A DNA stretch of 64,000 bases from Takakia lepidozioides (GCA_030704615.1 CM060733.1:36952001-37016000); one strand, 5' to 3'; positions 41,354 through 64,000 are shown, numbered from the stretch's first letter. Notes: generated by a model from the sequence alone, not told the origin. Program-made: numbers and translations.

Positions 41354-44300
41354 TGTTCCGGACTGCCATCTAACAAAGGGAATTCCACTAGTCCCAAATA
41401 GGTAGAGGGTTTAGTGGGAAGCGAAAGGGGACCATTATACCCCGGTGAGCAGCCGAAGCTCCAAGTTGGCCCGGCGGCCAGGTTGGGAGTCAGGCGCGCG
41501 CATCAAAGCGAGTAACTATGACGTGAAGGGGAGCTTACCGAAGGGAGGTGCGCGACACTTGGTATCAGAGCTTAGAGTTCAGTACACGATCGTCCTTGGG
41601 ATTGGCCTCATAATGGGTCGGGCAAGCCGAAGCGAAAGCGGAACGGCCCAAAAGATGATGATCCTGGTGAGCCCGATGGTCACCGAGGCGGCCGTTTGAG
41701 GAAGCGATGAATGTTTCCGAAAACGAGGCCGCTCAAGAGCGGGAGGAATCCGAGGAGTCGGAGCCTGAGGAATCCTTGAGAGCTCCGACAAACCAAGAGA
41801 TGCCTCCCATGTCGGCAGCCTTTTGGGAAGGGTTGTTGGCGCAGTTTGGCGGGACGTTGAAAGACGTGTTGAAGGCGGCTAATGCCACTTCCACAAAGGC
41901 AAAGTTTAAAGTGAAGCCTAAGGAACCCGGCACCTTCGAGGGCGTCCGAAATCGGAAGGCACTCAACACCTGGCTCCTGGAGCTAGAGGTACTTCGAGGA
42001 TCGGGTGGAAGTGGCTCCTACCTATTTGAGGGGCTATGCTCAACAATGGTGGCAGAAACGCCTTCACGACCGAGGTCCAAGCCCGGAAACCTTGAACTAG
42101 AGTGGGTTCAAGGAATTGATGAAGAGACAGTTTGTGCCCCCTCAACGCGTCCTGGCTTGCCCGGACAAGATGAGGAATTTGAAGCAAACAGACGACATTC
42201 GGGGATATGTCCAGGCTTTCAATGTGCTTTTGCTCGAAGTCGCGGATATGGCAGAACCGGAAATGGTCTTCAACTTTGTGGCGGGACTGAAGACCGCGTG
42301 CAGGACAAGGTATGGTTCATATGAGTTCTTGTTAATGCCTTTTGGGCTCACCATGCACCTGCGACCTTTAGCACGCTGATGAACAGCCTTTTCTAGGAGT
42401 GGTTGGATGACTTTGTGATCGTGTACATCGACGACATCTTGGTGTATTCGAAACAAAAGGAGGAGCACCTGGAGCATCTCGAAAGGGTGTTCCAGAAAAT
42501 TGCGAGAAGGAAGCTGTATGCCAAAGCTTCAAAGTGCGAATTCGGGGTCACAAAGTGGAGTTCCTGGGGCATGTGATTACACAGGATGGGAATCAAAATG
42601 GATGACAGGAAGGTGAGGGCAATTTGGACTGGGAGCCTCCGACTTCGGTCCCGGGAGTGTGATCCTTCCTAGGACTCGCCTCCTATTACCGGAAGTATGT
42701 GAGAAATTTCGCCAAAAATCGCGGGGCCGCTGTCAGACCTTCTGTGTAAATCTAAAGTCTGGGCATGGAACACCTTTTGTGGCCAAGCTTTTGCTGAATT
42801 GAAGCAGCGGATGGCGGAAGCTCCAGTCTTGAAATCCCGGAGTTCGATCGTCCGTTTGAGATATATACAGATGCGTCGGACTTCGCGATTGGTGGTGTGC
42901 TGATGCAAGATGGACGTCCAGTGGCTTACGAAAGTAAGAAACTGAATGAAGTGGAATGACGGTGGCCGACGCACGAGAAAGAGATGAAGGCGGTGGTGCA
43001 CTGTCTTGAGCTTTGGCGCCACTATGTTGGTTCCAACCCAGTGAAGGTGTTCACGGACAATGTCACGGTGAAGTATTTTGCCACGCAGCCAAGTTGTCCC
43101 CAAAACAACTTAGGTGGCAAGATACTTTGGCGGTGTTCGACGTGGATATCCAGTACAACCGGGACGAGACAACGTGGTGCCGATGCTTTAAGTAGAAAGC
43201 AGCAGCTCTTGTAGGTGTACAAGGGCGAGACGGCGCTCCAAAGGAAGATCCGGAAGGCGTGCCGGAAGGATGAGCTGGCAAAGTCCGTGATGCAGGACTT
43301 GAGGATGGGGGTTAAATCGCAGTTCCACTTCAAAATTGGACTGCTCTGGTATAAGCAAAGCGTCTCTACGTGCCGAAGGGAGGGATCAGAGATAGCCTCT
43401 TGAGAGAATGCCATGATAGCCCGCTTGCGGGCCACGGAGGAGCCAAGCGCACTGCGGCACTCTTGAAGAAAGAGTATTTCTAGCCCAAACTGAGGGAGGA
43501 GGCGGAGGAGTATGTCAAGACATGCACCACATGCCAACAAAACCGGAGCGAGTACAAAAAGCAAGCGGGGCTGTTACAACCCTTGCCGATTCCAGAGGGG
43601 ACTTGGGAAAGCGTCTCGATGGATTTCATGACTGCTATGCCGCTGTCAAAAGGATTCGATGCAATCATGGTGGTGGTGGATAGGTTCAGTAAAATGGGTC
43701 ATTTCATCCCCACCAAGGAGACGGCAACGGCGCAGGAGACAGGGCGACTTTACTTCGCCCACGTCTTAAAGCATCATGGAGTCCCGAAGGATATTGTCTC
43801 GGACCGCGATCCAAAGTTTACGAGTAAATTTTGGAGGGCACTTTGGAAGAAGATGGGGACGAGGCTGAAGATGAGCACCGCCTTCTGACCTACGACCGAC
43901 GGCCAAACAGAAAGAGTGAATTCCGTAGTGAAACAGATCCTGCGGAATTACGTGTCGGCAGACCAAACAGACTGGGTGGAACACTTAGACGCGGCAGAGT
44001 TCTGTTATAATAACACAGAACACTCCGCAAAGAGAGTTTCCCCTTTTGTATTGGTCTATGGAAAAGCACCCCTGGTGCCGACAAGTTGGGCCGCCCAGGA
44101 CGTCGAGGAACCGGCAGTAGCGGCGATACTGGAAGAACGCGAGCGTTAGTTGAAGCTCGCAAAGTACAACATTGCCAAAGCTAGGAAACGGTATGAAAGG
44201 CAGGCGAATCGGAAGCGGAGGGAAGTGAAGTTTGAGGCAGGCACGGAGGTCTGGTTGAACATCAAGAATTCCCGACTACCTCCGGAAGTGAGTCCGCCGT

Positions 44301-46303
44301 ATGCGAGACCCTTTCACATTCGGAAGGTTATGAATGAGGATGTGTATGAATTGGAGCTGCCGGCAAACAGCAAGGTGCACCCCGTATTCCATGTCTCCCT
44401 TTTGAAGCCTTACTTCAAAGATGAAGTGCGTCCGAATCGGCATCAAGTGTTGCGTCCGCCACCTATGCTGTTGGATCATGAAAATGAACCTGAGTACGAG
44501 GTGGAGGCAATACTTAAGTCGAGGAGGTTCAAGAACCGAGAAACGGAGTATCTCGTCAAATGGAAGGGCTATCATCATGTGGAGGCATCTTGGGTGCGTG
44601 CCTCAGAAATGGGAAACGCATCCGAGGCGGTTGCAGCTTTCGAAGGGCGACCTCCAAAGCGGAAGAAACGTTGATAGGGACATCAACCTTGGAGCGTGGG
44701 GGAGGAAATGCATGCTTAGCCCGGCTTAGCTAGCTCAGAAATTCGATTACAAAAACTTGTATTGTACAAAAATTTGTTATAAAGGAAATGGGTTCCAAAT
44801 GTTGTGCGTCCTATTTTGTTTGGAATGGTGATGCATGGTATGGTTGGCTAGTCTGTACAATGCATGCTAGCTTATAAAAGTGGGAGAGGTAAATTGGGTT
44901 AATCGTGTGTTTGCGTAGTGCCGAAATCGGGTGACCCCCATCCAAGGGGCAAGGAAACTTGCGACTTTCTTTTGGAGTTCACGTGCTAGGCGCACCTGGC
45001 GCGTGCGTGTACTATAACTGCGCTAACCGAGGGGGTTGCCTTGTAGTGCGGGCTAACGTGGAAGCTACGTGCTTCCGTTCACGTACTATAATCGTGTAGC
45101 CTCGGGACGAAGTCGTAGTGCGGCTTCGGCGTGTTCCCATACCTCAGGCCAGCATTCCAAGGCGGACCCAATTGTAGTGATTGGGCGCACGGTTGGTTCA
45201 AGGTTATCTTCCTAGTCAAACAGGGTTCCAGGGAACCCTTGCTTAAGGTGATGCCAAAAGCGGCATCATGAGCGATCGCAAGCAATGTTGTTGCAGTAAG
45301 GCGATTCGATCCTCGGGGAGGATCGTTCCTTGGCCTTGAAGTAGGCCAAGAAGAGTGCACTGGGAGGAGCTGGAGAGGCTCCACCCTTGGCCGGGACTTG
45401 GAGGAAGTCGGCCGAACTAGCTAGTGGAGAGTAGAGTCAAGTGTGGGGTTTGGTTCTTTGCCATGGGATGCCATGGTGCGGAAACAAACTCCTTGATGTG
45501 GGACGCCACATCTTGGATGTTCGTTTCTACAAAATGGACAAGTCGATGAGGACATCGACTCCCTGTTGGTAGGGGTGTGTGTCGCGGCCCTTTGCCTTGA
45601 GGGCAGGGGGTCGGGACACATGAGGGGCTGCCCCTGTGGTGGGGGCATCGGCAGCGATAGGTATGGGGGGCTGAAGCACCCTTGAGTGCCCAAAGCACTG
45701 AAGGAGGCGGAGGCGCTCACTAGGTGGAGCCCCGCACACCGGGTTGCGGTGGGGGTGGCTCCACAAGGGGTGGTGGTAGCTTAGCGGGACTTAGTGGGGG
45801 TGGCATAGGACTCACCATGGGGGCGGAGACCTCGTGGTGGGAGTCGTGGGGAGTCTTGGGACTCATCACGGTCCATAGGGGCCGTGGTGAGTGGGCCAAG
45901 ACTCACCGCGACTCATCACCGGAGTCGAGGGTTTTCGTGGTGGTTCGCCATAAAATGGCATGGCTGGTTATGAAACCCCCGCAGACAGCTACAGAAGTAT
46001 ATATAGGGAGTAGTAACCCCGAGAACGGTGCAAGCCCGTTGGTGACCAAAAACTAGTGAGTAAGCGAGCGAGCCGGAAAGCGACCAAAGAGTGGGGAGCT
46101 GTTCCGGACTACCATCTACCAAAGGGAATTCCACTAGTCCCAAATAGGTGGAGGGTTTAGTAGGAAGCGAAGGGGGACCGTTATGTCCTGGTGAGCAGCC
46201 AAAGCTCCAAGTTGGCCCGGCGGCCAGGTTGGGAGTTAGGCGCGCGCATCAAAGCGAGTAACTATGACGTGAAGGGGAGCTTACCGAAAGGAGGTGCGCG
46301 ACA
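41354..46303 (+). mobile_element. Chromovirus element A, internally deleted, inserted in opposite orientation into element B
   Basis: Partial 5' LTR 41354-41557; PBS TGGTATCAGAGC 41560-41571. Gag is joined directly to RT near 42288 (about 1.45 kb missing relative to B), followed by RNaseH, IN and chromodomain (44150-44674). PPT GGTAGGGG precedes the full 3' LTR 45580-46303. Confidence 0.9.
45580..46303 (+). repeat. Complete ~724-bp LTR of element A
   Basis: TGTCGCG...CGCGACA termini; near-identical in reverse complement to 51762-52488. Confidence 0.92.
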
Positions 46304-47144
46304 CAAGTTGTGGCGTCCCACATCAAGGATTTGTTTCCGTACCATGGCGTCCCATGGCAAAGAACCAAACCCCACACATGACTCTACTCTCCACTAGCTA
46401 GTTCGGCCGACTTCCTCCAAGTCCCGGCCAAGGGTGGAGCCTCTCCAGCTCCTCCCAGTGCACTCTTCTTGGCCTACTTCAAGGCCAAGGAACGATCCTC
46501 CCCGAGGATCGAATCGCCTTATTTGCAACAACATTGCTTGCAATCGCTCATGATGTCGCCTTTGGCATCACCTTGCGCAAGGGTTCACCTCAAACCCCCT
46601 TTGACTAGGAAGATAACCTTGAACCAACCGTGCGCCCCAATCACTACAATTGGGTCCGTCTTGGAATGTTGGCCTGAGTACGGGGACACGTCGAAGCCGC
46701 ACTACGACTTCGTTCCGAGGCTACACGATTATAGTACGTGAACGGAAGCACGTAGCTTCCGCGTTAGCCCGCACTACAAGGCAACCACCTCGGTAGCGCA
46801 GTTATAGTACGCGCACGCGCCAGGTGCGCACTAACACGTGAACTCCAAAAGAAGGCGCATGTTTCCTTGCCCCTTGGATGGGGGTCACCCGATTTTGGCA
46901 CTACGCAAACACACGATTAACCCAATTTACCTCTCCTACTTTTGTAAGCTAGCATGCATTCTACACACTAGCCAACCACACCATGCATCACCATTCCAAA
47001 CAAAATAGGACGCACAACATTTGGAACCCATTTCCTTTATAACAAATTTTTGTACAATACAAGTTTTTGCAATCGGATTTCTGAGCTAGCTAAGCCGGGC
47101 TAAGCATGCATTTCCTCCCCCACGCTCCAAGGTTGATGTCCCCA

Positions 47145-50100
47145 TCAACGCTTCTTCTGCTTTTGAGGTCGCCCTTCGAAAACTGCAACCGCCTCGGATG
47201 CGTTTCCCATTTCTGAGGCACGCACCCAAGATACCTCCACATGATGATAGCCCTTCCATTTGACGAGATACTCCGTTTCTCGGTTCTTGAACCTCCTCGA
47301 CTTAAGAACTGCCTCCACCTCGTACTCAGGTTTATTTTCATGATCCAACAGCATAGGTGGCGGACGCAACACTTGATGCCGATTCGGACGCGCTTCATCT
47401 TTGAAGTAAGGCTTCAAAAGGGAGACGTGGAATACTGGATGCACCTTGCTGTTTGCCGGCAGATCTAGTTCATACACATTCTCATTCATAACCTTCCGGA
47501 TGCGAAAGGGTCCCACATACGGAGGTACGAACTTTGGACTCACTTCCGGAGGTAGTCGGAAATTCTTGATGTTCAACCAAACCTCCGTGCCTGCCTCAAA
47601 CTTCATTTCCCTCCGCTTCCGATTCGCCTACCTTTCATACCGTTTCCTAGCTTTGGCAATGTTGTACTTTGCGAGCTTCAACTAACGCTCGCGTTCTTCC
47701 AGTACCGCCGCTACTGCCGGTTCCTCAACGTCCTGGGCGGCCCAACTTGTCGGCACCAGAGGTGCTTTACCATAGACCAATACGAAAGGGGAAACTCTCG
47801 TTGCGGAGTGTTCTGTGTTATTATAACAGAACTTTGTCACGTCTAAGTGTTCCACCTAGTCTGTTTGGTCTGCCGACACGTAATTCCGCAAGATCTGCTT
47901 CACTACAAAATTCACTCTTTCTGTCTGGCCGTCTGTCGTAGATCGGAAGGCAGTGCTCATCTTCAGCCTCGTCCCCATCTTCTTCCAAAGTGCCCTCCAA
48001 AATTTACTCATAAACTTTGGATCGCGGTCCGAGACAATATCCTTCGGGACTCCATGATGCTTTAAGACGTGGGCGAAGTAAAGTCGCCCTTTTTCCTGTG
48101 CCGTTGCCGTCTCCTTGGTGGGGATGAAATGACCCATTTTACTGAACCTATCCACCACCACCATGATTGCATCGAATCCTTTTGACAGCGGCATAGCAGT
48201 CATGAAATCCATCGAGACGCTTTCCCAAGTCCCCTCTGGAATCGGCAAGGGTTGTAACAACCCCGCTTGCTTTTTGTACTCGCTCCGGTTTTGTTGGCAT
48301 GTGGTGCATGTCTTGACATACTCCTCTGCCTCCTCCCTCAGTTTGGGCCTGAAATACTCTTTCTTCAAGAGTGCCGCAGTGCGCTTGGCTCCGCCGTGGC
48401 CCGCAAGCGGGCTATCATGGCATTATCTCAAGAGGCTATCTCTGATCCCTCCCTTCGGCACGTAGAGACGCTTTTGCTTATACCGGAGCAGTCCATTTTG
48501 CAAGTGGAACTGCGATTTAACCCCCATCCTCAAGTCCTGCATCACGGACTTCGCCAGCTCATCCTTCCGGCAAGCCTTCCGGATCTTCCTTTGGAGCGCC
48601 GTCTCGCCCTTGTACACCAACAAGAGCTGCTGCTTTCTACTTAAAGCATCGGCCACCACGTTGTCTCGTCCCGGTTTGTATTGGATATCCACGTCGAACA
48701 CCGCCAAAGTATCTTGCCACCTAAGTTGTTTTGGGGACAACTTGGGCTGCGTGGCAAAATACTTCACCGTGACATTGTCCGTGAACACCTTCACTGGGTT
48801 GGAACCAACATAGTGGCGCCAAAGCTCAAGACAGTGCACCACCGCCTTCATCTCTTTCTCGTGCGTCGGCCACCGTCGTTCCACTTCATTCAATTTCTTA
48901 CTTTCGTAAGCCACTGGACGTCCATCTTGCATCAGCACACCACCAATCGCGAAGTCCGACGCATCTGTATGTATCTCAAACGGACGATCGAACTCCGGGA
49001 TTTTCAAGACTGGAGCTTCCGCCATCCGCTGCTTCAATTCAGCAAAAGCTTGGCCACAAAAGGTGTTCCATGCCTAGACTTTAGATTTACACAGAAGGTC
49101 TGACAGCGGCCCCGCGATTTTGGCGAAATTTCTCACATACTTCCGGTAATAGGAGGCGAGTCCTAGGAAGGATCGCACTCCCGGGACCGAAGTCGGAGGC
49201 TCCCAGTCCAAAATTGCCCTCACCTTCCTGTCATCAATTTTGATCCCATCCTGTGTAATCACATGCCCCAGGAACTCCACTTTTGTGACCCCGAATTCGC
49301 ACTTTGAAGCTTTGGCATACAGCTTCCCTTCTTGCAATTTCTGGAACACCCTTTCGAGATGCTTCAGGTGCTCCTCCTTTGTTTTCGAATACACCAAGAT
49401 GTCGTCGATGTACACGATCACAAAGTCATCCAACCACTCCTGGAAAAGGCTGTTCATCAGCGTGCTAAAGGTCGTAGGTGCATTGGTGAGCCCAAAAGGC
49501 ATCACCAAGAACTCATATGAACCATACCTTGTCCTGCACGCGGTCTTCTCCTCATCTCCTTCCGCCACCCGAATTTGATGATAGCCGGAGCGCAAGTCGA
49601 TCTGGCTGAAATACTTCGCTCCTGCCAACCGATCGAAGAGGTCGTCGATCCTTGGCAAAGGGTACCGGTTTTTGATAGTCACCTTATTCAGAGCCCTGTA
49701 ATCGACACACATCCGCAACGTCCCATCCTTTTTATCTGCAAATAGCACCGGGGCTCCGTAAGGTGACTTACTCGGCCGGATGTACCCCTTTGACATTAGA
49801 TCTTTGAGCTGAGTCTTCAGCTCGACCAACTCCCTGTGGCTCAACCGGTAGGGCGCCTTGGCAGGCGGTTCCGATCCCGGTATCATCTCAATCTTGTGGT
49901 CAACTCCTCTTCGCGGTGGCAAACCGCTTGGTAAATCCTCCGGCATCACATCCTGGTATTTCTCCAAAATCCCCCTGATCCAATCTGGGCTCGGCTCCCC
50001 ATCGCCTTCTCCCTTCACTTCTCTAATGTAGAGCAAAAACTGGGGCTCGTGTGCCTCCTCCACGACCCACTCCCTTGCTGATAGAAGGTTTACTCGCCCT

Positions 50101-51600
50101 CCCACGGGTTTGGGCATTTCCGACACTCGTAAGACCTCGCCACCATTCCCACATGGCAGCGTGACTACTCTCTTGCGGCCATCTATGACCGCTCCGGATT
50201 TGCTCAAAAAAGTCATCCCCAAAATGAGATCCACTCCATCGATCTCGCAGATGGTGAAGTTCTCACGTCCCTCCCAACTCCCTAGTTGAAGAGGAACATC
50301 AAACGCTAACCTTGTCGCCAGTTGTGGTTCTCCTTTGGCAGAACGCACCTCAATAGAGGCCCCCACGTCACTTGTCGGGAGTCCCAGCTTTTGTGCCGTT
50401 GCCAGTGTCATGAAGGAGTGCGACGCTCCTGTGTCCACCAACAACGACACATTAGTTCCGGATATTATCCCATCCACGAACAATAACTAACTCCCTTTAC
50501 GTAAGGCGCAAGTTTCCAAATACAACTCACAAGAAAATTTGCCTACCTTGCAAGTCCTGGCGACCACCGCTTCCACCAAGCGACTGATGGTATCTTCCGA
50601 CAGCTCTGTGGTCGCCCGAGTCATGTTCAATTGCCGGGGCTTCGTGCACTTCTTGGCCATGTGCCCGGGCTCCCCACAATTGAAACACACTCCATCAAAG
50701 GTTGCCTTCTGTCCGCCATAGGCCGCTCCACCCGCTTTTCCTTTCGAAGCACCGGGTGCCGCCTTGACTTGTGATGGCCCTCCCTTTGATTTCCACATGC
50801 CATTGTCGCCGCGTGGCCTATCCCACTTCTTTTCCGGTCGGAAGGAGTCACCTTCCCGCCGGGTCTTCTTGTGGTTCAGCTCCGTACGGCCTTGTCTTTC
50901 ACCCCTAGGGACATCTGAGAAATATTCAGCCCTCTCAATTGCCTCGTTCAAAGTCTTAGGTGGCTTCTCCTCCAACTTTCGTCTGGCCCATGGGGCCAGT
51001 CCCGCCACAAAGTTGAAGACCATTTCCGGTTCTGCCATGTCCGCGACTTCGAGCAAAATCATATTGAAAGCCTGGACATATCCCCGAATGTCGTCTGTTT
51101 GCTTCAAATTCCTCATCTTATCCCGGGCAAGCCAGGACGCGTTGAGGGGCACAAACTGTCTCTTCATCAATTCCTTGAACCCACTCCAGTTCAAGGTTTC
51201 CGGGCTTGGACCTCGGTCGTGAAGGCGTTTCTGCCACCATTGTTGAGCATAGCCCCTCAAATAGGTGGGAGCAACTTCCACCCGATCCTCGTCACTCAAC
51301 TTGGCCGCCCGGAAGTACTGCTCTAGCTCCAAGAGCCAGGTGTTGAGTGCCTTCCGATTTTGGATGCCCTCAAAGGTGCCGGGTTCCTTAGGCTTCACCT
51401 TAAACTTTGCCTTAGTGGAAGTGGCATTAGCCGCCCTCAACACGTCTTTCAGCGTCCCGCCAAACTGCGCCAACAACCCTTCCCAAAAGGCTGCCGGCAT
51501 GGGAGGCATCTATTGGTCGGTCGGAGCTCTCAGGGATTCCTCGGGCTCCAACTCCTCAGATTCCTCCCGCTCTTGAGCGGCCTCGTTTTCGGAAACATGC
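47145..51600 (-). pseudogene. Element B gag-pol: Gag (CCHC knuckle), protease, RT, RNaseH, integrase, chromodomain; one frame broken by stop codons
   Basis: CFNCGEPGHMAKKC; [10 protein letters not shown]; YIDDILVYS; TDASDFAIGGVL; VSMDF, VSDRDPKF, DGQTERVN; GPF; EYEVEAVL...EYLVKWKGY. ORFs 50487-51509, 49074-50483, 48423-49037 and 47856-48368 share one frame. Confidence 0.93.
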
Positions 51601-51761
51601 ATCGCTCCCTCAAACGGCCGCCTCGGTGACACGTCGCCCCCATCGGGCTCACCAGGATCATCATCTTTTGGGCCGTTCCGCTTTCGCTTCGGCTTGCCCG
51701 ACCCATTATGAGGCCAATCCCAAGGACGATCGTGTACTGAACTCTAAGCTCTGATACCAAG

Positions 51762-52488
51762 TGTCGCGCACCTCCCTTCGGTAAGCTCCCCTTCACGTCA
51801 TAGTTACTCGCTTTGATGCGCGCGCCTGACTCCCAACCTGGCCGCCGGGCCAACTTGGAGCTTCGGCTGCTCACCGGGGTATAACGGTCCCCCTTTGATC
51901 TCCCAAAGAACCCTCCACCAATTTGGGCCCAGCGGGAATTCTCTTTGATAGTTGGAAGTCCGGAACAGCTCCCCACTCTTTGGTCGCTTTCCGGCTCGCT
52001 CGCTTACTCACTAGTTTTTGGTCACCAACGGGCTTGCACCATTCTCGGGGTTACTACTCCCTATATATACTTCTATAGCTGTCCGCAGGGGTTTCACAAA
52101 CAACCATGCCATTTTATGGCGAACCACCACGAAAACCCTCGACTCCCGGTGATGAGTCGCAGTGAGTCTTGGCCCACCCACCACGGCCCCTATGGACCGT
52201 GATGAGTCCCAAGACTCCCCACGACTCCCACCACGAGGTTGCCACCCCAAGGTGAGTCCTATGCCACCCCCACTAAGTCCCGCTAAGCTACCACCACCCC
52301 TTTGTGAAGCCACCCCCACCGCATCCCGGTGTGCGGGGCTCCACCTAGTGAGCACCTCCGCCTCCTTGAGTGCTTTGGGCACTCAAGGGTGCTTCAGCCC
52401 CCCGTACCTATCGCTGCCACTGCCCCCACCATAGGGGCAGCCCCTCATGTGTCCCGACCCCCTGCCCTCAAGGCAAAGGGCCGCGATA
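51762..52488 (-). repeat. Complete ~727-bp 5' LTR of element B
   Basis: Adjacent to the PBS and the TSD; the terminal CA reads TA on the + strand. Confidence 0.92.
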
Positions 52489-53844
52489 TTGAGAGCTTTC
52501 ATTGTCTTCTACTTCTCTCATTTCTCATCTCTTATCACTACAAGAAGATCACCTTATGCTTGTGAGTGCGGAGTGTAAAGATTAGTTTTGCACTTGTATT
52601 TTAAAGAGGTTGAGAGCTAGGAGAATTTAGCTCTTGTATCACAAGGCTTGCAAGGGGTTGCAAGGAAAGGTGCTCGAGTATTGCATGCACCAATGAGTTG
52701 GAGAGCTTGAAAAGAAAGCTCTCGAGTCACAATATTTTGCAAGGATTGTAAAGAGGAAGTCTTGTGTGTGTGGAAGCATGGATACTAGGGTTTGAGAATC
52801 TTTTGTATGCATTATGGAGTCGATGGTGTGCGCCATGGCTTGTGGAGAGTGACTAAAGGCTTGTTAGTGCTCATTTCACTATCAAGCTAGGGTTAAGCAA
52901 GTTCAAAGTGTGGATGTTGTGGAAGAGAAGCCAAGGAGCTATATATGCTTGGGCTTGAAGACAACAAGGGCAAGCACTTGGAGAGCACTAAGAAGCTCAA
53001 GAGGTTTTGAAAGGGAGCATATGAAGAAATCTTCCAATCATGGTGGTGTGGAGCCAAAGTTAGGGTGCCATTGGAAGGGCTTGGAGAACATGTGGTGGGA
53101 AATCCCTGAAGGGAAATTATCATTCAATGTATGCATAGCTTCACCCTAACTATGTAATGTGACAAGAGGGGGAGGCAATACTTGGCTATTCATGCTCTTG
53201 GTAGTGCGAGCTTTGTGGTGGACAGTTGACCAAGCAAGTGGTGCATGTGTGGAGCATGCTCGCTTGAGTTTGTAAGTTCAAGTTTGAGAAGGGGAGCTCT
53301 TGAACTAGCAAGAGATGAAGCCTTTGAGATCCATTTGTGTGTGAAGTGGAGAGGTGTTGATTCATGTTATGATGAAGGAGAGCAACACATAGGCCAAGAG
53401 GTCATGAAACATGCATTCAAATGACCACGGGGAGCATATGGATGATGGATTGGTGCAAGACCCCAAATGAGGCATATGGCGAGAGAGTGGGATCTAAGGC
53501 GGATTGCTTGGGAGCATTACTGTAAGTGACAAGCATTGCTCCTACACATTGAGATAATTTGTGTTGATTTGGAGCAATTGTCAAGTGATGAGGAGACAAA
53601 TGCATGATTGCTCGGCTATGGAGCTACGTAGTTTGCAATCAAATCCCAAGGACTAGAAGGGGGATTGATTTGGTGGACAATGACTTGCAAGTTGAGTTGG
53701 ACCACTCTTGGTTGCACATTGGGGTGGAAGAGAGCAAGAAGATGCCTCTTATGACCACCTAGAGACCATATTTTTGCTTGAGTAGAAGCATAGAAGTCAA
53801 GGACTTGCATTCTAGCTCTTCATTACAAACCCTATTAGTGTATG

Positions 53845-54325
53845 CTCAGACTATACCTTTGTTAGTATACCAAACAGGAGCTTGTCCCTTTGACTATACC
53901 TCTGTTGAGGTATCACCATATGTGAACCCTAATGTGAGACTATACCCTGTTAGTATACCAAACAGGAGCTTGTCCCTTTGACTATACCTCTGTTGAGGTA
54001 TCACCATATGTGAACCTTAATGTGAGACTATACCCTGTTAGTATACCAAACAGGAGCTTGTCCATTTTACTATACCTCTATTGAGGTATCACCATATGTG
54101 AACCCTAATCAGCTCAGACTATACCTCTGTTAGTATACCAAACAGGAGCTTGTCCCTTTTACTATACCTCTGTTGAGGTATCACCATATGTGGATCCTAA
54201 TCAGCTCAGACTATACCTCTGTTAGTATACCAAACCGAACCTCATTTTCAGACTATATCTCTGTAAAGGTATCATCAACATAAGGGACCCTAGCAACCTC
54301 AGACTATACCTCTGTTAAGGTATCA
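53845..54325. repeat. Tandem array of about five 88-92-bp units, each with two GACTATACC(T/C)-TGTT sub-repeats
   Basis: GTTAGTATAC recurs at 53861, 53949, 54037, 54129 and 54221 (spacings 88, 88, 92, 92). Confidence 0.92.
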
Positions 54326-55074
54326 ACAGTGAAAGGACTTAGTGAAATTTAAGGGCCTTTGGAGGATTGTTTGGAAGATATTTGAGGGCCCTTGGAGGAG
54401 TATTTGGAGGATCTTTGGGGTCCTTGGAGGACCCTTCGAGGAGCTTTGGTGGACAATGTTGAAGAGCTCTTTAAGGATTGATTGAGGGATATTGAAGGAT
54501 ACTTGCCACGGCCATACAAGCGAGTGGATAGAGACAGGAGGGAGAGTGGTGGGATGAGAGCATTCTGGGGTTAGGAATTGCTTTAGTTTCTCTTCTCCAT
54601 AGTCTTTCACTCTCTCTGTAGGCCAAAACCTTTCCGTAGGTGGAGGCAAGAGTCAGTCCAAGTTTGGGCTGGGTTGTCCTTGTAGGAGCAACACTGTGGA
54701 GTGTTTTTGGTGTGGGGGAGTTGCTGTCTTGATTTTCTTGTGTTTGGATCCCCTCCACACCTGCATGCTTGACTGTGCGCCATGTTAGCTTTGTGTGGGT
54801 GCTTGTTTTCATAGGAGGTTAGTCCGGATTTGATCACCGGCCAATCCTAGAGTATGCTGTCGGTGGTGAGGCTGGAGTAATGACCAGCAAGACTACCAGT
54901 GTTTCTTCTATGGTGAGGCTGACCAGCAGACCATAGGAGTGCTTGCGGTGGATGCAAGTGCAGGTACAGGTCTATGTTAGAAACCTATTATTCCTGCTTG
55001 AACCAGTAGCCGCAACATGTTCTTTACCTGGTTACCTTATAGAAAGTGGGGATTAGAGACAGGTTGACAACCGG

Positions 55075-57514
55075 TTGGGTTGTGAGTTTTCATCACGAGC
55101 TGCTGAGGGGAGTGCCGGTACAAGCACCAGCGATACTAGTGGGTACACAAGACAAGGTGTGCGGTTTAGGCCACTTTCATCTTCAGTGTCTTCTGAGGAA
55201 GGTTCAGACTCAGAGTCAGGAGGATTCTCGCCAAGGGTGCAAGTCATTTCCGTGCCATTGTTGTGGGACACGATGGAGGAGATGTATGGAGCTACCAAGG
55301 GGCCACGTAGGTACTCTGGAGCTGTGGGCACCATCGAGCTTGCTGACTTTATACAAGAGTTTGACAGTTGGTGTGATTTGCAGCAAATGCGCAATCCACA
55401 ACTGTTTACGCCCTTTATGGCGTGGAAGGGGCTATTCCAGCACCTTGAGGGGCCGCCCATGGATGATTACCATGAATTTAGGCAGGGACATGCGGTGGAG
55501 ATTGAGGAGTGGCGAGAGTATTGGTCACCTAACTATGTCTCAATCACTAGAGGCACAAGGGCAGCGGTGACACCAGCAGCTACACAAACATCTCCAACTA
55601 CAAGCACTAGTAGTGAAACAAGTAGTGCCGACACTTCTGCAGGTGGTACCAATTCAAAAGGTGCAACTACTCCTCCTGCCACGACTACAACATATGTGCC
55701 TAGATTCAACCCGGTGGTGGAGTTCTTCCAGGAGTTGCGGAGAAACTACCAAGGTGTACGGACAGAGAAGCTGCGAAGTTTGCAAGACTTCCAGCGCAAA
55801 TCCAGTGAGAGCTTGCGAGAGGCCTACACTCGTATGAGGCGCTTGATAAGTGTGACCCAAGGGGATACTGAAGCTCAGGTAGTCCAGTTCTGGTATGGAA
55901 TTTTGGACAAGGAGCTCAAGAGAAGGGTGCGGGTGTTATGACTTGCACCCTGAGTTGCGCCCAGGCCAGTTCCAAGGGAACAATGGTGGCCGGGGGCGAG
56001 GTGGACCAGCCCAGAGAGGACGAGGTGGTCGGGCACGAGGTGCAGGCCAAGGGCAAGCTCAACATGGCCAAGGACGTGGAGGTCAGGGTGTTGACCAAGA
56101 CATGGCCATCCGGCTTCAGCAGCTAGAGCAGAGGCTCGCTGCCATGGCTACAGCTCAAGTGGTACCGGCTCCCAGGCGGGATGGTCCACCTCCGGCTCCT
56201 GAGAGAGGAGATATGGGAGGCATGGGATTCATGTGCGGAGCAGCACTACCACTAGTGTAGGTGGAGTCTGCTGCAGCCGTGACTCGAGGAGCAGCACGAG
56301 TTCCTGAGCCACGAGGCGCAGAGGTGGAATTGGATCCACAGCGTGAGGAGGCAAGCCGTCAGGCGAGGCTTCCTCAGTCATTCACATTGGCAGAGACAAT
56401 GTCGACGCCATCCATGGCACCTATTTCTCGCCCGACTGTTACCGAGGCGGAGGTTACTATGCCATTAGGGAGAGCTACACGTGCAGCACTTACACCTGCT
56501 ACCAAGGCTAGTGCAGCCGGTGTGTTATTGGGGGCAGCCACCTCTGTGTGTCAAGCCCCACTGTTCTCGGCAACCATGATTGCGACGCCGGGGGTAAGAC
56601 CGGTTGCAGTGTTCAGACTAGCAGCAACACTCTGCGAGAGTGGGGAGGTCACTTCATCTTCTGCGGAGTTACTGGAAGGTGTAGTGGCAGAGGGATCCTC
56701 GGATTTGAGGGTCAAGACTACCACGGATGCGCCATGGCAAGCTGCAGCTGCCAGGTTGACGGAGCTGCCAGCTAGGCTAGCCTTTGAGCGCACCATGGTG
56801 ACACTTGGAATTGTCTTGTTAGACAACCAGAGAGACATTTTCACTTTGAGTGGACCGGCAGGCAAGAAGTACCGGCCACTGCGGGTCTTGTTGGACTCAG
56901 GAGCTCAGCCACTGATGTTGGGCAGAGCTGCTATTGCAGGTTTGGGCCTCATGGAGGCGGATATGGAGCCTTGTCCTTTCCAGATACAAACATCTCTGGG
57001 AGGATCAGAGCAGGCTCGGGGCATGACACGACGTGAGTTGGCCATTGGACTACAACCAGATCATCCTGTAGATGGCTCAGTGATGCGAGCCAAGGCCATT
57101 GTGACAGACGCGGTCTCTTTTGATGTCCTTGTTGGTGGGGCAGTGTTATATCCCATGGGCTTCACCCTGGACTTTTGGGAGGAGTCAGCATCCTATAGGC
57201 CTGGATGGCAGTCAGGGGATGGTCGTTGTGCACAGCTCCCTGTGACATTCATTGGGGGTGTTGCGGCTGCCCAGCGGGGCAAGATACCAACATTAGCCGC
57301 CTTTACAGCTGCAATTAGTTGGCCTGGAGAGTTGCTTGAAGGCAATGTCCATGCAGAGGATGTGCCACCTCCAGCAGAGCACGATGACATGCATGGTACG
57401 ACAGAGTTGCCTGCCATGGTTGCTCACACTCCATTATGGGGTACGAGCAAGGATTTGCAGCAGGCTGCTGATGGACGGGTACAACAAGCCTGGGTAGAGG
57501 CCTTCGTACTGTAA
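55075..57514 (+). pseudogene. Element C Gag, RGG-rich linker and aspartic protease
   Basis: Retrotransposon-gag-like FFQELRRNY...LQDFQRKSSESLREAYTRM; RGRGG repeats; RVLLDSGAQ catalytic motif and FDVLVG. Confidence 0.8.
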
Positions 57515-57601
57515 GGAGAAGAGGAGAGTGCGGTGATTGCACCAGGACCACCTCAGTTATCGACATTGGACACCACACCTCTTGTGTGGCAGTGCCCGGA
57601 T

Positions 57602-58520
57602 GAAGGCATATGCCTTCTGGACTTGTTTGGCGGGATCAGCACTGGATTGGCTGCAGTACTGCAGGCAGGTGTACGAGTTCGATGTTACCTGTATGTGGAG
57701 AGGGATGAGACTGCACGACACGTCTCACTGCGCCATGTTGCTCAGTTGGTACAGCAGTACCCTGATTTGTTGCCAGTGTCTGTTGTTCGTGGATACCAAT
57801 AAGCCTTGCCAACAGACATTTCGTTGCTGGGGGCGCAGGATTTGGAGCGGGATGGCTCCATTGATCTGGTAGTGGAAGGTTGGCCCTGCCAAGGGCATTC
57901 ATCAGCCGGTCATGGCAATGGATTGCGAGACTCGAGGACGGGTCTGTTTTGGGAGATGGTGCGGATTTTGCGCCACTTGCAGCTTCATCAAGCTGTATCT
58001 CCAGCATACATCTTGGAGAATGTGCCACTGATGGGTGATTCTCGGGCCAGGGTGATGACCAATGTGCATCAAGTCCGGACGTGGCTTGGGTCAGCAGTGT
58101 TGCTGGATGCAGCTGCAGTGGGGTCATGGGCTCATCGTCCACGGCTATGGTGGACTAACTTGATGCCACCCGCACTGCTCAAGCGTACATTTGATGGGGT
58201 GCAGCGGCCAGCACACCTCACAGTGGATAGCATTTTGGACACAGGGAGGCAGTCTCAACGTGTGAGACACGATGACCGTTCGTCTTTGGCAGTGGTCAAC
58301 AGGGTGGGTCAACCACGAGCAACATTACCTACACTGCTCAGCTTCCCAGGATCCCATGCTTTTCGGAATGGTGGACCTGGCCTCTTGTGGGATAGCCAGT
58401 TGCAACAATTAGTGGAGCCCAATGCTGACGAGCGCGAGCGGGCGATGGGTTTTACCACAGGTACCACGGCGGTGCCATCTCTTTCTGAGGCATCACGTCA
58501 TCAGGTGTTGGCGCAAGAGT
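57602..58520 (+). pseudogene. DNMT3-like cytosine-5 DNA methyltransferase domain within the retrotransposon polyprotein
   Basis: Motif I LLDLFGGISTG; II YVERD; IV DLVVEGWPCQGHS (PCQ at 57884-57892); V GLRDSRTGLFWEMVRIL; VI YILENV; VIII DAAAVGSWAHRPRLWWTN; IX ERERAMGF. One in-frame TAA at 57800-57802. Confidence 0.92.
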
Positions 58521-58937
58521 ACGGAGTACACTTCCCTTCATGGTCTCCCTGCCTACCGAGACGGTACAGGCAGCGAGTGGGGGCAAGCAGGTGAGGACCA
58601 CGAGGTGCAGGCCGCATCCATGGCACACGTGGGAGGTGCTCGAGGTTCAGAAGGAGTTGGCAGCCAAGGTAGCTGTGATGGATGAGGTTGGGGATTCTTC
58701 TCGGATTGATGAGGTCCTCAAGGATGAGATGATGGGGCAGGATGAGGCCTTGTCATTGACTGAGCAGGCAGGGAGTACTGCTCAAGAGGTTGCGGCATAG
58801 CAACCACGGGACGTGTCCTCTACCTCTAAGCCCACTGGACTTAAGGTGCAGTTACGGAGGACAATTGGGAGCCTAACATTGGACCCATTGTCACCGGAGG
58901 AGAGAGACGACGTATACGGTGGTTCCTGAGGGCTTAC

Positions 58938-61688
58938 ATGAATTGCTTTGCCTTCAGTTTGAAGGACTTAGGAGCACTGAAGGGTCAAGAGATTCGCATT
59001 GAATTGGCTACTGACACGCCAATCTTTCGGAGACCCTATAGATACAGTGACATGGAGAGGTCCTTGATTCAGATGAGAACTCAGGACCTTTGGGAGGCTG
59101 GTTTGGTGGAGCTATCTGAGGGAGAGTATGCTTCAGCCATAGTGATGCCAGCCAAGAAGGATGTCTTTGGCAATTGGACGGAGAGACGTATGTGCGGTGA
59201 TTACCGGCCTGTAAATCGTCAGACCAAGTCCGATAGGTATGCCATGCCAACACCAGAGGAGATCTTTGATGCCATTGGGCATGCCAAGGTCTTCAGCACG
59301 TTGGATTTATGATCCGGATATCACCAGTTGCCGATCAAGGTGGCGGATAAGCAAAAGACGGCATTCTGGGGGATCAATGAGCACGGGGTTAGGATTGCCT
59401 ATACCAGTGGCGGTTCTTACCATTTGGGCTTAAGAACGCTCCGGCAGAATTTCAGAGAGTCATGGACAGGATTCTAGCAGGGGTGGAGTTTGCTCGGTGC
59501 TACATAGATGACATCATCATTTTTAGTGTTACGGTGGAAGAGTATGAGAGACACCTTCAGGGGGTATTTGAGCGCTTGAGGGCGCACGGATTGAAGTTAC
59601 ATCCGGGAAAGTGCATGTTTTTCCACAACCAGATTGAGTGTCTAGGTCACATGATATATTCTAGAGGATTGGGGGTACAGCAGACTAAGGTAGAGTCTAT
59701 TGCACAGGTTCCACGCCCACGGATGTGAGCCGAGTTCGAGCTTTCATGGGGTTAGCAAACTATTATAGACGGTTTGTTAAGGGATTTAGTGCCATTGCAA
59801 AGGCTCTAATCAAACTGACCAATGTGGACCAGGAGTGGCAGTGGGAAGATGAGCAAGAACAAGCTTTTCAAGAGCTCAAGGCGAGGGTGACCTCGGCGCC
59901 CATCTTGAAACGACCTATCAGGGGGCGTCCTTTTCAGCTGCATACAGATTGGAGCATGTTGGGGCTTGGAGTGGTGCTCACACAGGTGGACGATGAGGGG
60001 AGAGAGTTCGTAGTGGCTTATGCTAGCCGCTCGAACAACGTTGCAGAGTCTAAGTATAGCTCATATGAGGGAGAATGCTTAGCTGCAGTGTGGGCCGTGG
60101 CACACTTCAGGTGCTATCTATACGACAATCTCTTCACCCTTGTCACAGTTCACCAACCACTCAAGTGGTTGATGGAGTCAGACAAGCTTACGGGGAAGCT
60201 TGCACGGTGGGCACTCATCCTTCAAGAGTAGGACTTTCAGGTGGTGCATCGACCGGGTTTGGTCAATCGCAATGCAGATGGGTTGAGTCGCAATCCATGC
60301 ACGAGCCAACAAGATGACACTGGAGCTCGGTGGCATGGTGAGACGGACGAGGAGATGGTGCCCGGATGGCATGCATCTGCATTTCTGTGTATCTTGACAG
60401 CAGAAGGCCAGGTTGGACGTGCAACAGGGATGACTGTAGATCAAGTGTCTGAGGATCCTGAGGCTAGCAATGAGCAAGGTGGCGCCAAAGATATACATGA
60501 GGATTCAGTTGTGTTGGACTACCTCCGCACTGGAGACACTGCAGCCACTGTGACTGCCAAGGAGAGGGATCGGATCCTACAACGAGCCAAGAGGTTCAAG
60601 TGGGAGGGGACACACCTGCTCCAAGTGTGGGAGGATGGTCAAGTGAGGATTGTGCCTCACCCAACACAGCGGGCACAGTTAGTGCGGCATGCCCATGAGG
60701 AGTTGGGGCATTTTGGGGTGCGACGCATTCATAGTCTACTGTAGGGGCAGTATTGGTGGCGTGGTATGCACACGGAGGTGCAACAATTTGTGGCTAGGTG
60801 CATGGTGTGTGACAGGGTGCGTGCTTCATTCAACGCCCCTACTCCACAATTGCACCCTCTTCCGATCATGGGATTGGGCTACAGGTGGAGTTTTGACTTC
60901 GCAGGGCCGTTGCCACTGACCATGCGCCACAACAAGTACGTGTTGGTGATGGTGGAGCACTTCTCCAAGTGGATTGAATTGGTTCCATTGCCTGATAAGG
61001 CTAGTGAGGGAGCTGCGTATGCATTCTTGGATTGTGTGCTTAGCCGATTCGGTGCTCCAGCTGAGGTACTCACGGACCAAGGGAGAGAGTTCTTGGGGGA
61101 GTTTCAGGCTTTGTGTGACAAGGTCTTGATAGACCACCGCACCACTTCTCGGGATCATCCTGAGGCCGATGGCTTGGCAGAGAGAGTTGTTCAGACAGTA
61201 AAGAGGGGTTTGCGCAAGTATGGCTTGCAGAAGGGACACCTAGGAGATTGGGACCTTCAGTTACCCTGGTTAGCCATGGGCTACAGGTTCAGCAAGCAAG
61301 CATCACTTGCCTCCTTCTCACCATACTTTCTTCTCTTTGGCCGAGAGCCGGATTTGCCTACATCCATTCGCAGAGAAGCTGCTACAGTTCTTAACCTTGA
61401 CGATCCGGACGTGTGGGCACGTGCATGTGAGCAGCGTGCAAAGTTGTTCAAGAAAGTCATGCCCATGGCTTTTGAGAACCTTGCCATTGCACAACATCGT
61501 GATACGTTGAGGTATGCTACCATACGTGGTGGGGGCTATCGTCCTGGGGTTCGGAGATTCAACCCTGGTGACTATGTCTATCTGCAGCAGACTGCTCCTA
61601 CGACATTGGATGTGACTGCAGGACGTGTTATTTTGAGGGTTCGAGAGGTTTTGCCCTCAGGAGTCCTGATCTTGGAGGGTCGGGATGG
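58938..61688 (+). pseudogene. Element C reverse transcriptase, RNaseH and integrase (3'-truncated)
   Basis: MCGDYRPVN, FSTLDL*SGYHQ, YIDDIIIFS; LHTDWS...VAYASRS...ECLAAVWAV; HEELGHFG...CMVC, WSFDF, LTDQGREF, DGLAERVV. The frame is cut after ILEGRDG by LTR-derived sequence. Confidence 0.92.
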
Positions 61689-61711
61689 CTCACCTCCATA
61701 GCTCTAGGTAT

Positions 61712-61928
61712 TGAGAGAAGCTCATGGAGGCTCAACTACAAGAAGATGAGCCTCCTCAACACTCACAAGGGGAAAACCTATCTCCATGTCTCAAGTGAGG
61801 TTCGACACCTCACTTGGCATGTGAGACCAAATGAAGTCCCAACACACAAAATATAAATAGAAATATCTAAAATGTCCTAGTTAACTAGAAGTAGGTAATT
61901 CTAGATAACCATGACTAAAACCATGACA
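61712..61928 (-). repeat. Inverted copy of the first ~210 bp of the element C LTR
   Basis: Reverse complement of 40642-40850 with a few substitutions and one 8-nt indel. Confidence 0.93.
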
Positions 61929-62149
61929 GCTGTCGTGCACCTAAGCATTGTGCCACAACATACATCGTTGTCCACCACACAATCTAAGCACACAATCCTA
62001 GAAAGCTATACCACAATATAGGTGCACGACAACTGCAATACCATCTAATACATTTCTGAAGTGCAAATGTCAAATAGTAGCAGGTTAAGATCCATTAGAA
62101 CAAACATAGTCGGGGCTTTCAAAATTGGTAACCAAAGGCGGAGCATCCC

Positions 62150-62342
62150 TACGGTGCTAGAGAGCCCAAGACGATAAATCCTTCCTCACGTTGTATCTTC
62201 AGGATGCGACGTTTTTTTTGCGACGCCCATGCGACTCCCGGGCGATGGCTAGTGTCACAAATACGGCGCCTGCCCCGTGCCTGAAATTGGCTTTTTTGCG
62301 GCGTGACCCGGGCGTGGCAAAGGCCCCCCTTTTCCTGTAGTG
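62150..62342. mobile_element. Possible CACTA transposon end fragment
   Basis: Ends in TTTTCCTGTAGTG (CACTACAGGAAAA on the minus strand), preceded by GCGACG/GCGGCG subterminal-type repeats. No partner end with a TSD found. Confidence 0.35.
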
Positions 62343-62394
62343 CACAGCTATAGGTGCTATATGTTTCTGAGGACATGGCATCTGGCAAGTTGTC

Positions 62395-62630
62395 CAGATG
62401 CCACGTGAGCCAGATAACGACATGTCAGCAGGCCCTCGCCACGTGAGCCTCACGCTCACGCCACATCAGCTAGTGTGCGGCTGCGCTCACGCCACGTCAC
62501 CATCGCGTGAGCGTACGCTCTCACGCTTACGCCACGTCAGCGTGACCCCATGCTCACGCCACATCAGCTGTTATGCGCCTGCGCTCGCATTACGTCACCA
62601 TCGCGTGAGCATACGCTCTCACGCTCACAC
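62395..62630. repeat. GCCACGT/GCCACAT-rich cluster containing a ~98-bp tandem duplication; DNA-transposon subterminal-like
   Basis: CGCCACATCAGCT...CGTCACCATCGCGTGAGC.TACGCTCTCACGCT occurs near 62459 and 62557. Confidence 0.7.
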
Positions 62631-62767
62631 GGAAGTCACGTCCCTGAGAGCAGCAACACTTGCTGTTCTTAGGCCTTCACATGCTTTGTTGGCTCTCTCT
62701 CTCCATCTCTTCTTGCCCCTCTCTCTCCTCTCTGATTTTTGTTTTTTTATTGTGGGGAGTGACAAAA

Positions 62768-62786
62768 AAGAGAGAGAGAGAGAGAG

Positions 62787-62820
<34 letters not shown>
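62768..62820. repeat. Compound (GA)n(TA)n microsatellite
   Basis: Direct inspection. Confidence 0.95.
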
Positions 62821-62822
<2 letters not shown>

Positions 62823-64000
62823 AGAGGGACAGAGAGGGCGAGACGAGCAAACAAAAACAAAAAAGGTGGGGGGGGGGGGACTGAGCAGTTGTTGCTGCTC
62901 AGTCACTCTCTCCCCCACATTTTAATTTTATTTTTCTTGCACCCTCACTGGTGGGGGGAGCTGAGAGCAGCAACACTTGCTGCTCTCACCCCCCCCACAT
63001 GTTTTTTTTTTTTTTTTTGGATCTGGAATGTAGAGATTGTTTCTTGGTGAGGCCAACTTTTGGGTTTGCATGACAAGTGCCAGGCTTATGGGGAAAGAGA
63101 AGAAGTCCCATGCCCCAAAGAAATGGGCGGAAAACCCGTTTGCTCTATCGGCACATATGACGCGGGCTGGTGTCTCACGGTTAACCAGCCCCGTCGACAG
63201 CCACAGCCGAAGGGCTCGTCTGCCCCCTGAGGCCAGTACCCCCCCCCCCCCTCTTGTCCCCGTCTTGGATTCGCCAGGGGCCGGCTCAACCACCTCTCCT
63301 ATTCGGGAGGTTGTTGTTGGGCCGGATGCTTAGTTGAGCACACCCCCGGCCACCAAGACAAGTGAAATGTACCTTGGCAAGCGCATCACCCGTTCGGGGG
63401 CCCGGTTCGGGCAACTTTTGGATGTCACCCCTATACAGACCCCTTCCTCCGCAGCGAAGGCCGCACTTGCCAAGGCCCAAGGTCAGGTTGAAGGGCCTCG
63501 GGATGTGGCTATTCCTAGCCCAATGTTGAGCATGAGGGAGGAGTTGACGAGGAGGGCCAATGACGAGGCCGAGATAGCGAAGCGCCTCAAATTAGTCAAG
63601 CCGGGTGAGGGCTTCTACCCTGCTTCGCATTTTGGGGGGGGGGAGGAGGAGCTACAGGCCCAGTGTTTTTTTTTCTGGCGAATAATCGCCAGATTTCGAC
63701 TTGGAAAATGGGTCAGCGACTTTTACTAAGGAATTTTGGGATTAAAAATCAAAGAAAATCGCTAGAAAATGCCAAAGGGTAAATACCAGGAGCCAGATTT
63801 GTCCTACGTGGACCTGTCAAAGTATGACACCTGTAATATAGCCTCTTTTCCAGCTCTGTCACCCCGTTATTCTCGCCACATGGGCGTTGGGTAGAATCTA
63901 CATGTCGCCCTGCAAGCGATTTTGGAAAAGTGAAAAAAAAAACACTGTAGAGGCCGGTTTGGAGCGGCCTAGCTGATCAGTGATGCCGCCCCCTCAGCCT

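Follow-up and report, generated by a model that had tools for sequence, protein, structure and literature searches.

A DNMT3-bearing Gypsy retrotransposon family in land plants with a conserved candidate readthrough stop between methyltransferase and reverse transcriptase

A Gypsy retrotransposon that encodes its own DNMT3-type DNA methyltransferase, KnitGypsy-Dnmt3 of Klebsormidium nitens, was published in 2018 (de Mendoza et al., PMC5890265). According to the available sections of that account, it has the Gypsy order protease-reverse transcriptase (RT)-RNase H-integrase, an intronless and unpermuted DNMT3 with its key residues that evolves under purifying selection, and split repeats of the DIRS-like order A-coding-B-A-B. 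The same sections describe SymbioDIRS-Dnmt3, a retroelement with A-coding-B-A-B repeats whose DNMT3-type domain methylates CG de novo in yeast (PMC5890265). In this study, we analysed a window of 64,000 nucleotides (nt) from Takakia lepidozioides (GCA_030704615.1 CM060733.1:36952001-37016000; "the window" means this whole stretch, and positions are counted from its first letter), which carries a Gypsy element sharing all of these features with KnitGypsy-Dnmt3. Nevertheless, the DNMT of KnitGypsy-Dnmt3 lies in one Pol open reading frame (ORF) with RT and RNase H and the element is described as having few copies in K. nitens (PMC5890265), whereas the DNMT of the window family closes a Gag-protease ORF and the family is far more abundant, with hosts that include land plants. 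Unlike SymbioDIRS-Dnmt3, which as a DIRS element uses a tyrosine recombinase, the window family has a protease, a DDE integrase, a polypurine tract and 4-bp target-site duplications.

Pfam searches of the window copy returned Gag, protease, DNA_methylase, RT, RNase H and integrase, that is, the Ty3/Gypsy order. Between the DNMT and RT stands an amber stop, TAG CAA CCA (58798-58806, + strand), which has a type I (CAR-YYA) context; the nine other listed stops of the element are without it, and the + strand of the window holds three instances of the nine-mer pattern. The junction was scored in metagenome loci carrying relatives (labelled L0xx here; relative proteins are labelled P0xxx), 52 out of 80 of which had a DNMT end and an RT start within 700 nt of each other. 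One of the remaining loci has a gap of 1,155 nt, and the others lack one of the two matches. DNMT and RT are in one frame at 38 of the 52 loci. A TAG or TAA is present at the junction of 51, the exception being frameshifted, and the stop is followed by CAR-YY at 50 (CAACCC 43, CAGTTA 2, CAACCA 2, CAATCA 1, CAACTC 1, CAACCT 1), by the full CARYYA at five, and by CCA (TAG CCA) at one. As background, the same loci hold 196 CARYY and 66 CARYYA contexts among 16,810 TAG/TAA. We conclude that the stop at 58798 is a family-wide feature and not a product of decay.

TAG-CARYYA is kept in the window, L003, L052/L053, L063 and the second family of L074, although the linkers are barely or not alignable. 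This second DNMT-bearing family (L074:1-2700, - strand) is heavily decayed and 35-51% identical, and carries TAG CAA TCA between DNMT and RT. The intact relative L053 comprises 2,418 codons with one internal stop, laid out as 1,369 codons for Gag, protease and DNMT, TAG CAG TTA, and 1,047 codons for RT, RNase H, integrase and PHD; the first AUG past the stop is codon 117 of the second ORF, within RT. L063 has an unbroken frame with a single stop across its DNMT-to-PHD part. Two host runs, with 1,738 and 529 contigs respectively, and two additional contigs showed no variant of at least 5% at 58796-58806, whereas the other positions of the same 211 nt held 20 variant rows. Only one join skipping the junction was found, a 37-nt skip in one DNA contig. 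Called proteins of the stop-bearing clade end 75-184 residues past motif X. RNA structure 3′ of the stop, with z scores of -2.5, -2.1, -2.0, -1.6 and -0.7 for five sequences taken singly, is a lead only. We regard the architecture Gag-protease-DNMT, stop, RT-RNase H-integrase-PHD as nearly certain.

The methyltransferase domain is DNMT3-like and unpermuted, as the original prediction had proposed from its motif wording. A profile of 19 family sequences was colinear with human DNMT3A/3B over motifs I-X (E 7.5e-20). DRM2 aligned only in part, over profile positions 50-176, and the matches to bacterial enzymes and to DNMT2 were weak. The catalytic Cys and the Glu of ENV are each present in 87 out of 88 diverse sequences, and both motif VIII Arg residues in 85. 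The DNMT of L053, a natural intact relative, was modelled with a predicted local distance difference test (pLDDT) score of 97; the best PDB matches were DNMT3A/B/C, with template modelling (TM) scores of 0.79-0.83 (by target) against the isolated domains. Thus, L053 is predicted to keep the DNMT3 fold. The host enzymes PpDNMT3a/b and MpDNMT3b (Mp5g09290) likewise have an unpermuted DNMT3-type catalytic domain in the available parts of their descriptions (PMC6453930, bioRxiv 10.1101/2021.02.12.428880). Host plant DNMT3s, however, carry a C-terminal DUF3444, whereas the element's domain lies inside a Gag polyprotein, and neither DUF3444 nor permuted motifs were found in it by Pfam or the profile. 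Identity with a host plant DNMT3 or DRM was ruled out because DUF3444 and permutation are missing; Mp5g09290 was absent from the named matches of our protein searches. The claim that the enzyme is intronless and part of the polyprotein, rather than a captured intron-containing host gene, was likewise upheld.

Protein searches yielded 122 and 44 relatives, with Marchantia polymorpha, M. paleacea, Calypogeia fissa, Riccia sorocarpa, four Sphagnum species, Closterium and Monoraphidium as named sources; the closest named relatives were 65-68% identical across more than 90% of the query. Most of the 80 metagenome loci have flanking element domains in the same order. The Marchantia and Calypogeia elements are known here from proteins alone. 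Among the 15 listed of the 18 members of one cluster are five uninterrupted Marchantia Gag-protease-DNMT ORFs, 1,278-1,281 aa long, which stop 95 residues past motif X. Since the same architecture is present in named liverwort and moss genomes, the occurrence in land plants is independent of the window. The contigs of one host-species run that fell on 52500-64000 numbered 77,696, with a summed contig depth of 0.5-1.4 million over the coding region including the DNMT and of 5,000-32,000 beyond 62100; such depth is not copy number but a sign of great abundance only. The family is plainly very abundant in the host. Because the contig depth of the coding region includes the DNMT, where it equals that over RT and integrase, the DNMT is no local insert. 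A 5,009-nt contig of a second organism covers DNMT through integrase. Among the viral contigs searched there were five distant phage-type methyltransferases and no element.

Pairwise ratios of nonsynonymous to synonymous substitution (dN/dS), calculated with a Nei-Gojobori script, showed purifying selection on the DNMT, with values of 0.11-0.14 among L052, L053 and L063 (dS 0.25-1.4) and of 0.09-0.19 for near-saturated pairs (the window, L003, L059 and moss-type copies, and between families). The protease gave 0.12-0.30 and the RT 0.04-0.09. The DNMT is kept family-wide, land plants included. The original prediction had named four outcomes that would speak against it, namely a missing PF00145 match, a one-off insertion, a neutrally evolving domain and algal contamination of the contig; none of them was found.

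UAG-CAR-YYA is described as the type I readthrough signal (PMC3542737), and in tobacco mosaic virus (TMV) such an in-frame UAG likewise lies between two coding regions (PMC3542737, PMC2754532), with a readthrough efficiency of about 10% (PMC2754532). SIRE1, Tca2 and murine leukaemia virus (MuLV) also have in-frame stops, although, in the available sections, that of MuLV at gag/pol is accompanied by a pseudoknot and that of SIRE1 lies ahead of an env-like ORF (PMC2194720). Unlike in TMV, SIRE1, Tca2 and MuLV, as far as these sections describe them, the stop of the window family is placed after Gag-protease-DNMT and before RT. The stop of SIRE1 reportedly has a CARYYA context. From the codon and its context, we consider it quite probable that the stop of the window family is read through to make RT-RNase H-integrase(-PHD). 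The original prediction had the enzyme packaged in a polyprotein with RT and integrase. The shared frame stands, but the enzyme is co-translated with Gag and protease, with the conserved stop before RT; since the DNMT precedes this stop and the RT follows it, the methyltransferase would be made at the level of the capsid protein. We infer readthrough, packaging and methylation of the complementary DNA (cDNA) as steps of a model in which one transcript would start from repeat A and most ribosomes would terminate after the DNMT tail, giving Gag-protease-DNMT as the main product. If the TMV figure applies, about one ribosome in ten would read through and add RT, RNase H, integrase and PHD, so that DNMT and protease would outnumber RT and integrase about tenfold. 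The protease would release the domains inside the particle, and the packaged DNMT would methylate the cDNA, most likely at CG if SymbioDIRS-Dnmt3 is taken as a guide. The integrase would insert the cDNA with a 4-bp duplication, the PHD finger perhaps reading histone marks. The new copy would arrive methylated and be kept in that state by host maintenance enzymes, which would either mark the element as self or restrain its copy number. We lean only slightly towards this full model of leaky stop, Gag-level packaging and methylation of the new DNA copy, and about equally, or a little more, towards a catalytic action of the DNMT on the element's own DNA.

The stop may instead be a true terminator, with RT-RNase H-integrase expressed through spliced RNA, an internal promoter or re-initiation, and the DNMT still made with Gag. 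Expression of this kind has been proposed for Ogre. Alternatives to readthrough have been discussed for Tca2, in which an in-frame stop was not detectably read through in yeast (PMC2194720, available sections), and further points count against readthrough: L052 has an AUG at codon 5 and L063 one at codon 14, and the moss-type copies have one in frame 7 nt beyond the stop; the moss-type family (CAACCC, 43 loci, most of the 52) misses the sixth consensus base; and the loci are redundant, with re-assemblies and one dominant family, and represent about 6-7 independent lineages. Against termination stand the conservation of CAR-YYA across otherwise unrelated linkers, the unbroken frame with its single stop that is seen both in the intact L053 and from DNMT to PHD in L063, the lack of an AUG ahead of RT in L053, and the want of stop-skipping joins other than the 37-nt one in a DNA contig. 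We therefore consider a true terminator unlikely and readthrough the better explanation. A one-off capture of a host DNMT3/DRM gene, a neutral passenger or an algal contaminant contig is highly improbable: the same architecture occurs in chromosome-scale liverwort and moss assemblies, the domain is under purifying selection and has neither introns, DUF3444 nor permutation, the contig depth over it equals that over RT and integrase, and streptophyte-type host genes adjoin the element. One-off capture and neutrality are refuted by the family-wide architecture and the purifying selection.

As for the role of the enzyme, an active DNMT might target host chromatin or other copies in trans (e.g., by reinforcing the non-CG silencing of competing elements or of its own family) rather than its own cDNA. 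Expression at Gag level would supply far more enzyme than one cDNA requires, and the host DNMT3s of moss and Marchantia are described, in the sources available in part, as acting on transposon CHH/CHG; on the other hand, fusion to Gag would draw the enzyme into the particle, and the domain searches found no targeting domain such as DUF3444. We assign action in trans a small but appreciable probability. Less probable still is that the domain has no part in DNA methylation and is kept to bind DNA or RNA, as a structural unit or to methylate RNA. Such a role would fit the DNMT dN/dS above that of RT and the lack of activity of KnitGypsy-Dnmt3 in yeast, which its authors call inconclusive (PMC5890265, available sections), but the catalytic residues are almost invariant in the 88 diverse sequences, and fold and sequence are nearest to DNMT3 and distant from DNMT2. 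The yeast result also detracts from methylation of the element's own DNA, as do two observations of ours. Close moss-type copies have dN/dS of 0.40-0.60, as dead copies would show, and lend it no support. The CG observed/expected ratio is 0.50-0.54 in the element versus 0.88-0.90 in a nested chromovirus and 0.40 in the window background, and this depletion is not specific, other Gypsy-like elements in moss-type contigs having 0.37-0.48; CG depletion was therefore rejected as a trace of self-methylation. Methylation of the element's own DNA nonetheless remains the role that we favour.

When 1.84 billion representatives were searched with a profile, 600 clusters matched at E up to 1e-30, and 192 proteins (new matches together with earlier long ones) showed three layouts: RT-RNase H-DNMT-integrase(-PHD), including Scenedesmus and Monoraphidium; protease-DNMT-RT-RNase H in a single ORF, including Closterium; and protease-DNMT closing the ORF. 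Only Closterium-type relatives, P0157 for instance, have the DNMT in one ORF with RT as in KnitGypsy-Dnmt3; certain gene models from Marchantia and Sphagnum fuse the two, apparently through predicted introns. Quick DNMT and RT trees were built from 67 and 45 chosen rows, respectively, with midpoint roots, without host DNMT3 and with the Shimodaira-Hasegawa-like approximate likelihood ratio test (SH-aLRT) as the only support. A stop-bearing clade, with the window, Marchantia and moss-type sequences inside, was recovered in both (SH-aLRT 98 for DNMT and 99 for RT), as were the chlorophyte-type group (84 and 100) and the single-ORF group (91 and 100). The chlorophyte-type group (P0153-P0162, P0235-P0373; e.g., P0267 of Scenedesmus and P0165 of Monoraphidium) has its DNMT3 between RNase H and integrase and mostly a C-terminal PHD, with at least 35 complete RT-RNase H-DNMT-integrase-PHD proteins; we have not met it in print, though no search was aimed at it. 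The green-lineage Gypsy-7a_cRei of Chlamydomonas also has a PHD finger but, in the available description, no methyltransferase among its domains (PMC9940879). P0164 is a DIRS-like protein with the family DNMT and a Dam adenine methyltransferase. The Klebsormidium protein KFL_013780020, whose DNMT follows a protease-like region as in the window and is 36% identical to the window domain, took a separate branch, as one sequence in the quick DNMT tree without host DNMT3 outgroups; it ends 24 residues past motif X and is marked partial. The Klebsormidium-type Gag-protease-DNMT proteins P0260, P0379 and P0370 all end at this same distance, which hints that some Klebsormidium elements may also have a stop after the DNMT.

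The window copy itself is dead, as originally predicted: it has lost sequence at 55933 and at 58517, contains several stops as well as frame breaks, and has its integrase cut at about 61691. The four ORFs first noted share a single frame, with lone stops at 56258, 57512 and 57800. PF00145 (DNA_methylase) matched above the cut-off (E 6.7e-13) between protease and RT, and the other predicted domains were recovered as RVT_1 (6e-21), RNase H (7e-33) and rve (3e-14), while Pfam Gag (55057-55938, E 0.001) and protease (E 0.002) fell below the cut-off. All coding features are on the + strand. Gag (55273-56260), 65% identical over 222 aa to Marchantia Mp4g09160, lacks about 135 codons, including most of two zinc knuckles, at 55933, where contigs show loose ends; this gap, its size judged by eye against P0124, puts the N-terminal part of Gag in a different frame. 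The Gag-protease linker and aspartic protease (56261-57514), with DSG at 56894-56902, are followed by the DNMT3-type C5 methyltransferase, motifs I-IX (57605-58517), which has its catalytic Cys codon at 57887-57889 and the stop at 57800. About 56 nt, and motif X with them, have been deleted at 58517; a related contig retains those letters. Owing to this deletion, the last 25 codons of the ORF first drawn at 57806-58594 are off-frame, and the true C-terminal tail of the Gag-protease-DNMT ORF is 58519-58797, alignable with the tails of relatives. Past the amber stop lie the linker and RT (58807-59713; frame breaks near 58846 and 59389, stop at 59310), RNase H (59716-60231; frame break near 59716, stop at 60229) and the integrase zinc finger and core (60232-61691; stop at 60742), truncated before the position of the PHD finger, which follows the integrase in intact relatives.

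The limits first given, 55075-61688, proved too narrow on both sides: the element reaches far past them, probably spanning 40642-62031, and has split direct repeats rather than two ordinary long terminal repeats (LTRs). The first part of repeat A (40642-41010, + strand), at the probable left end, begins TGTCATGG, a terminal motif common to relatives, and matches at 95% an inverted A copy at 61712-61928. Repeat A is broken by two nested chromovirus copies foreign to the element (41011-52488, - strand; Ty3/Gypsy with chromodomain), which are 94-99% alike, are nested in opposite orientation and are bordered by a 5-bp duplication, TTGAG. The remainder of repeat A (52489-52536, +) is linked at its end to B, contigs of runs X1 and X5 joining 52536 to 62017 on the opposite strand as the A-to-B junction. 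A 5′ leader (52537-55272, +) follows, with tandem repeats of 88-92 nt at 53844-54317; upstream of about 54420 its contig depth is lower, and this part may be subfamily-specific or another insertion. Contigs of the second organism link 40961 with 53325, as though the intervening stretch were inverted there.

At the 3′ side the repeats of the window copy are rearranged into an inverted B-A piece (61692-62019, reading GTGCACGACA GC TGTCATGG on the - strand), and then the probable right end (62020-62031, +) with the terminal CACGACA at 62025-62031. The inverted piece had a similarity score of 82 against repeat B of L066, the shuffle maximum being 70. Directly 5′ of the left end stands ACCG (40638-40641), likely a 4-bp target-site duplication; ACTG (62032-62035) after the right end shares three of its four letters, the difference being a single transition at a CG. 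Contig depth is about 35-fold lower beyond 62100. The complete order A-coding-B-A-B (A about 340 nt, B 113 nt) is present in L039, L066 and L074 and its B-A-B part in L018 and L043, the window holding remnants. Relatives have TGTCA...CACGACA ends and a polypurine tract upstream of B, eight loci, L053 and L063 among them, contain the junction CACGACA-NN-TGTCA, and 4-bp target duplications were seen as AAGG in L066 and TCTC in L039 (L074 was unclear). By eye, no tRNA primer site was seen downstream of A. A canonical LTR retrotransposon, with equal LTRs around the coding region, was ruled out by the split repeats, and a DIRS retrotransposon by the rve integrase and the 4-bp duplications. The A repeat at L066:1676-2017 and other moss-type A repeats contain telomere-like TTTAGGGTTAG motifs and a TATA-like box.

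Directly left of the probable left end lies a host gene (34389-38923, -) with DUF7081, PHD_Oberon and DUF7615 in three ORFs. Farther away are exons of a long coiled-coil protein that by eye resembles a kinesin tail (19789-27432, -), fragmentary exons of an EDR2_C protein (14986-15573, +), a CACTA-type Transposase_24 fragment (6143-6676, +) and an ORF with QAQVQAL repeats and a weak DUF7722 match (4605-5417, -). The clusters of look-alikes to the host genes near the element are streptophyte. Among proteins within the length range searched, the only named match to the OBERON-like exon came from Ceratopteris, at 49% identity, and unnamed matches reached 56%. Together with the nesting of the element among liverwort and moss relatives, the sequence makes a non-seed land plant the likely host. 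Past the right end, at 62442-62628, two repeats of 83-89 nt adjoin AG and AT microsatellites.

DNMT3-bearing Gypsy elements are thus a kind already known, but their occurrence in land plants and the candidate leaky stop were not found in the literature searched. The original prediction took such elements to be no standard feature of land plants; they do occur there, as members of an old, widespread green-lineage type related to the Klebsormidium element. Marchantia and Sphagnum are not mentioned in the supplement files searched of PMC5890265, later papers speak merely of "streptophytes" in their available parts (PMC12344493, bioRxiv 10.64898/2026.05.21.726589), and the available accounts of bryophyte methyltransferases name host enzymes only. 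Parts of the literature such as figures, most supplementary trees, bioRxiv supplements, Repbase and subscription journals lay outside the search and may show bryophyte copies.

The elements described in 2018 raised the question of why a transposon should keep the very enzyme by which it is normally silenced, a question not easily addressed in their algal hosts. Marchantia polymorpha, by contrast, is a genetic model with methylomes and methylation mutants, and its uninterrupted ORFs allow direct tests of activity and sequence context. The conserved, probably leaky stop bears on mechanism, as it would place the DNMT at capsid level and the RT at a fraction of it. Gene callers split the elements at this stop, so that the link between DNMT and RT is hidden, and some of the DNA methyltransferase genes counted in bryophytes belong to such elements. 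Far from being a Klebsormidium oddity, the type forms a large lineage that extends to the chlorophytes. A bolder and less probable reading is that an ancient green-lineage clade of split-repeat Gypsy elements with DNMT3 and PHD, in which the enzyme moved between two positions of the polyprotein, predates land plants; that in the clade of the liverwort and moss elements a leaky stop of viral type would make the enzyme a major particle component, each new insertion being born methylated; and that the uninterrupted Marchantia ORFs, as unannotated de novo methyltransferases, may add to the methylome of their host.

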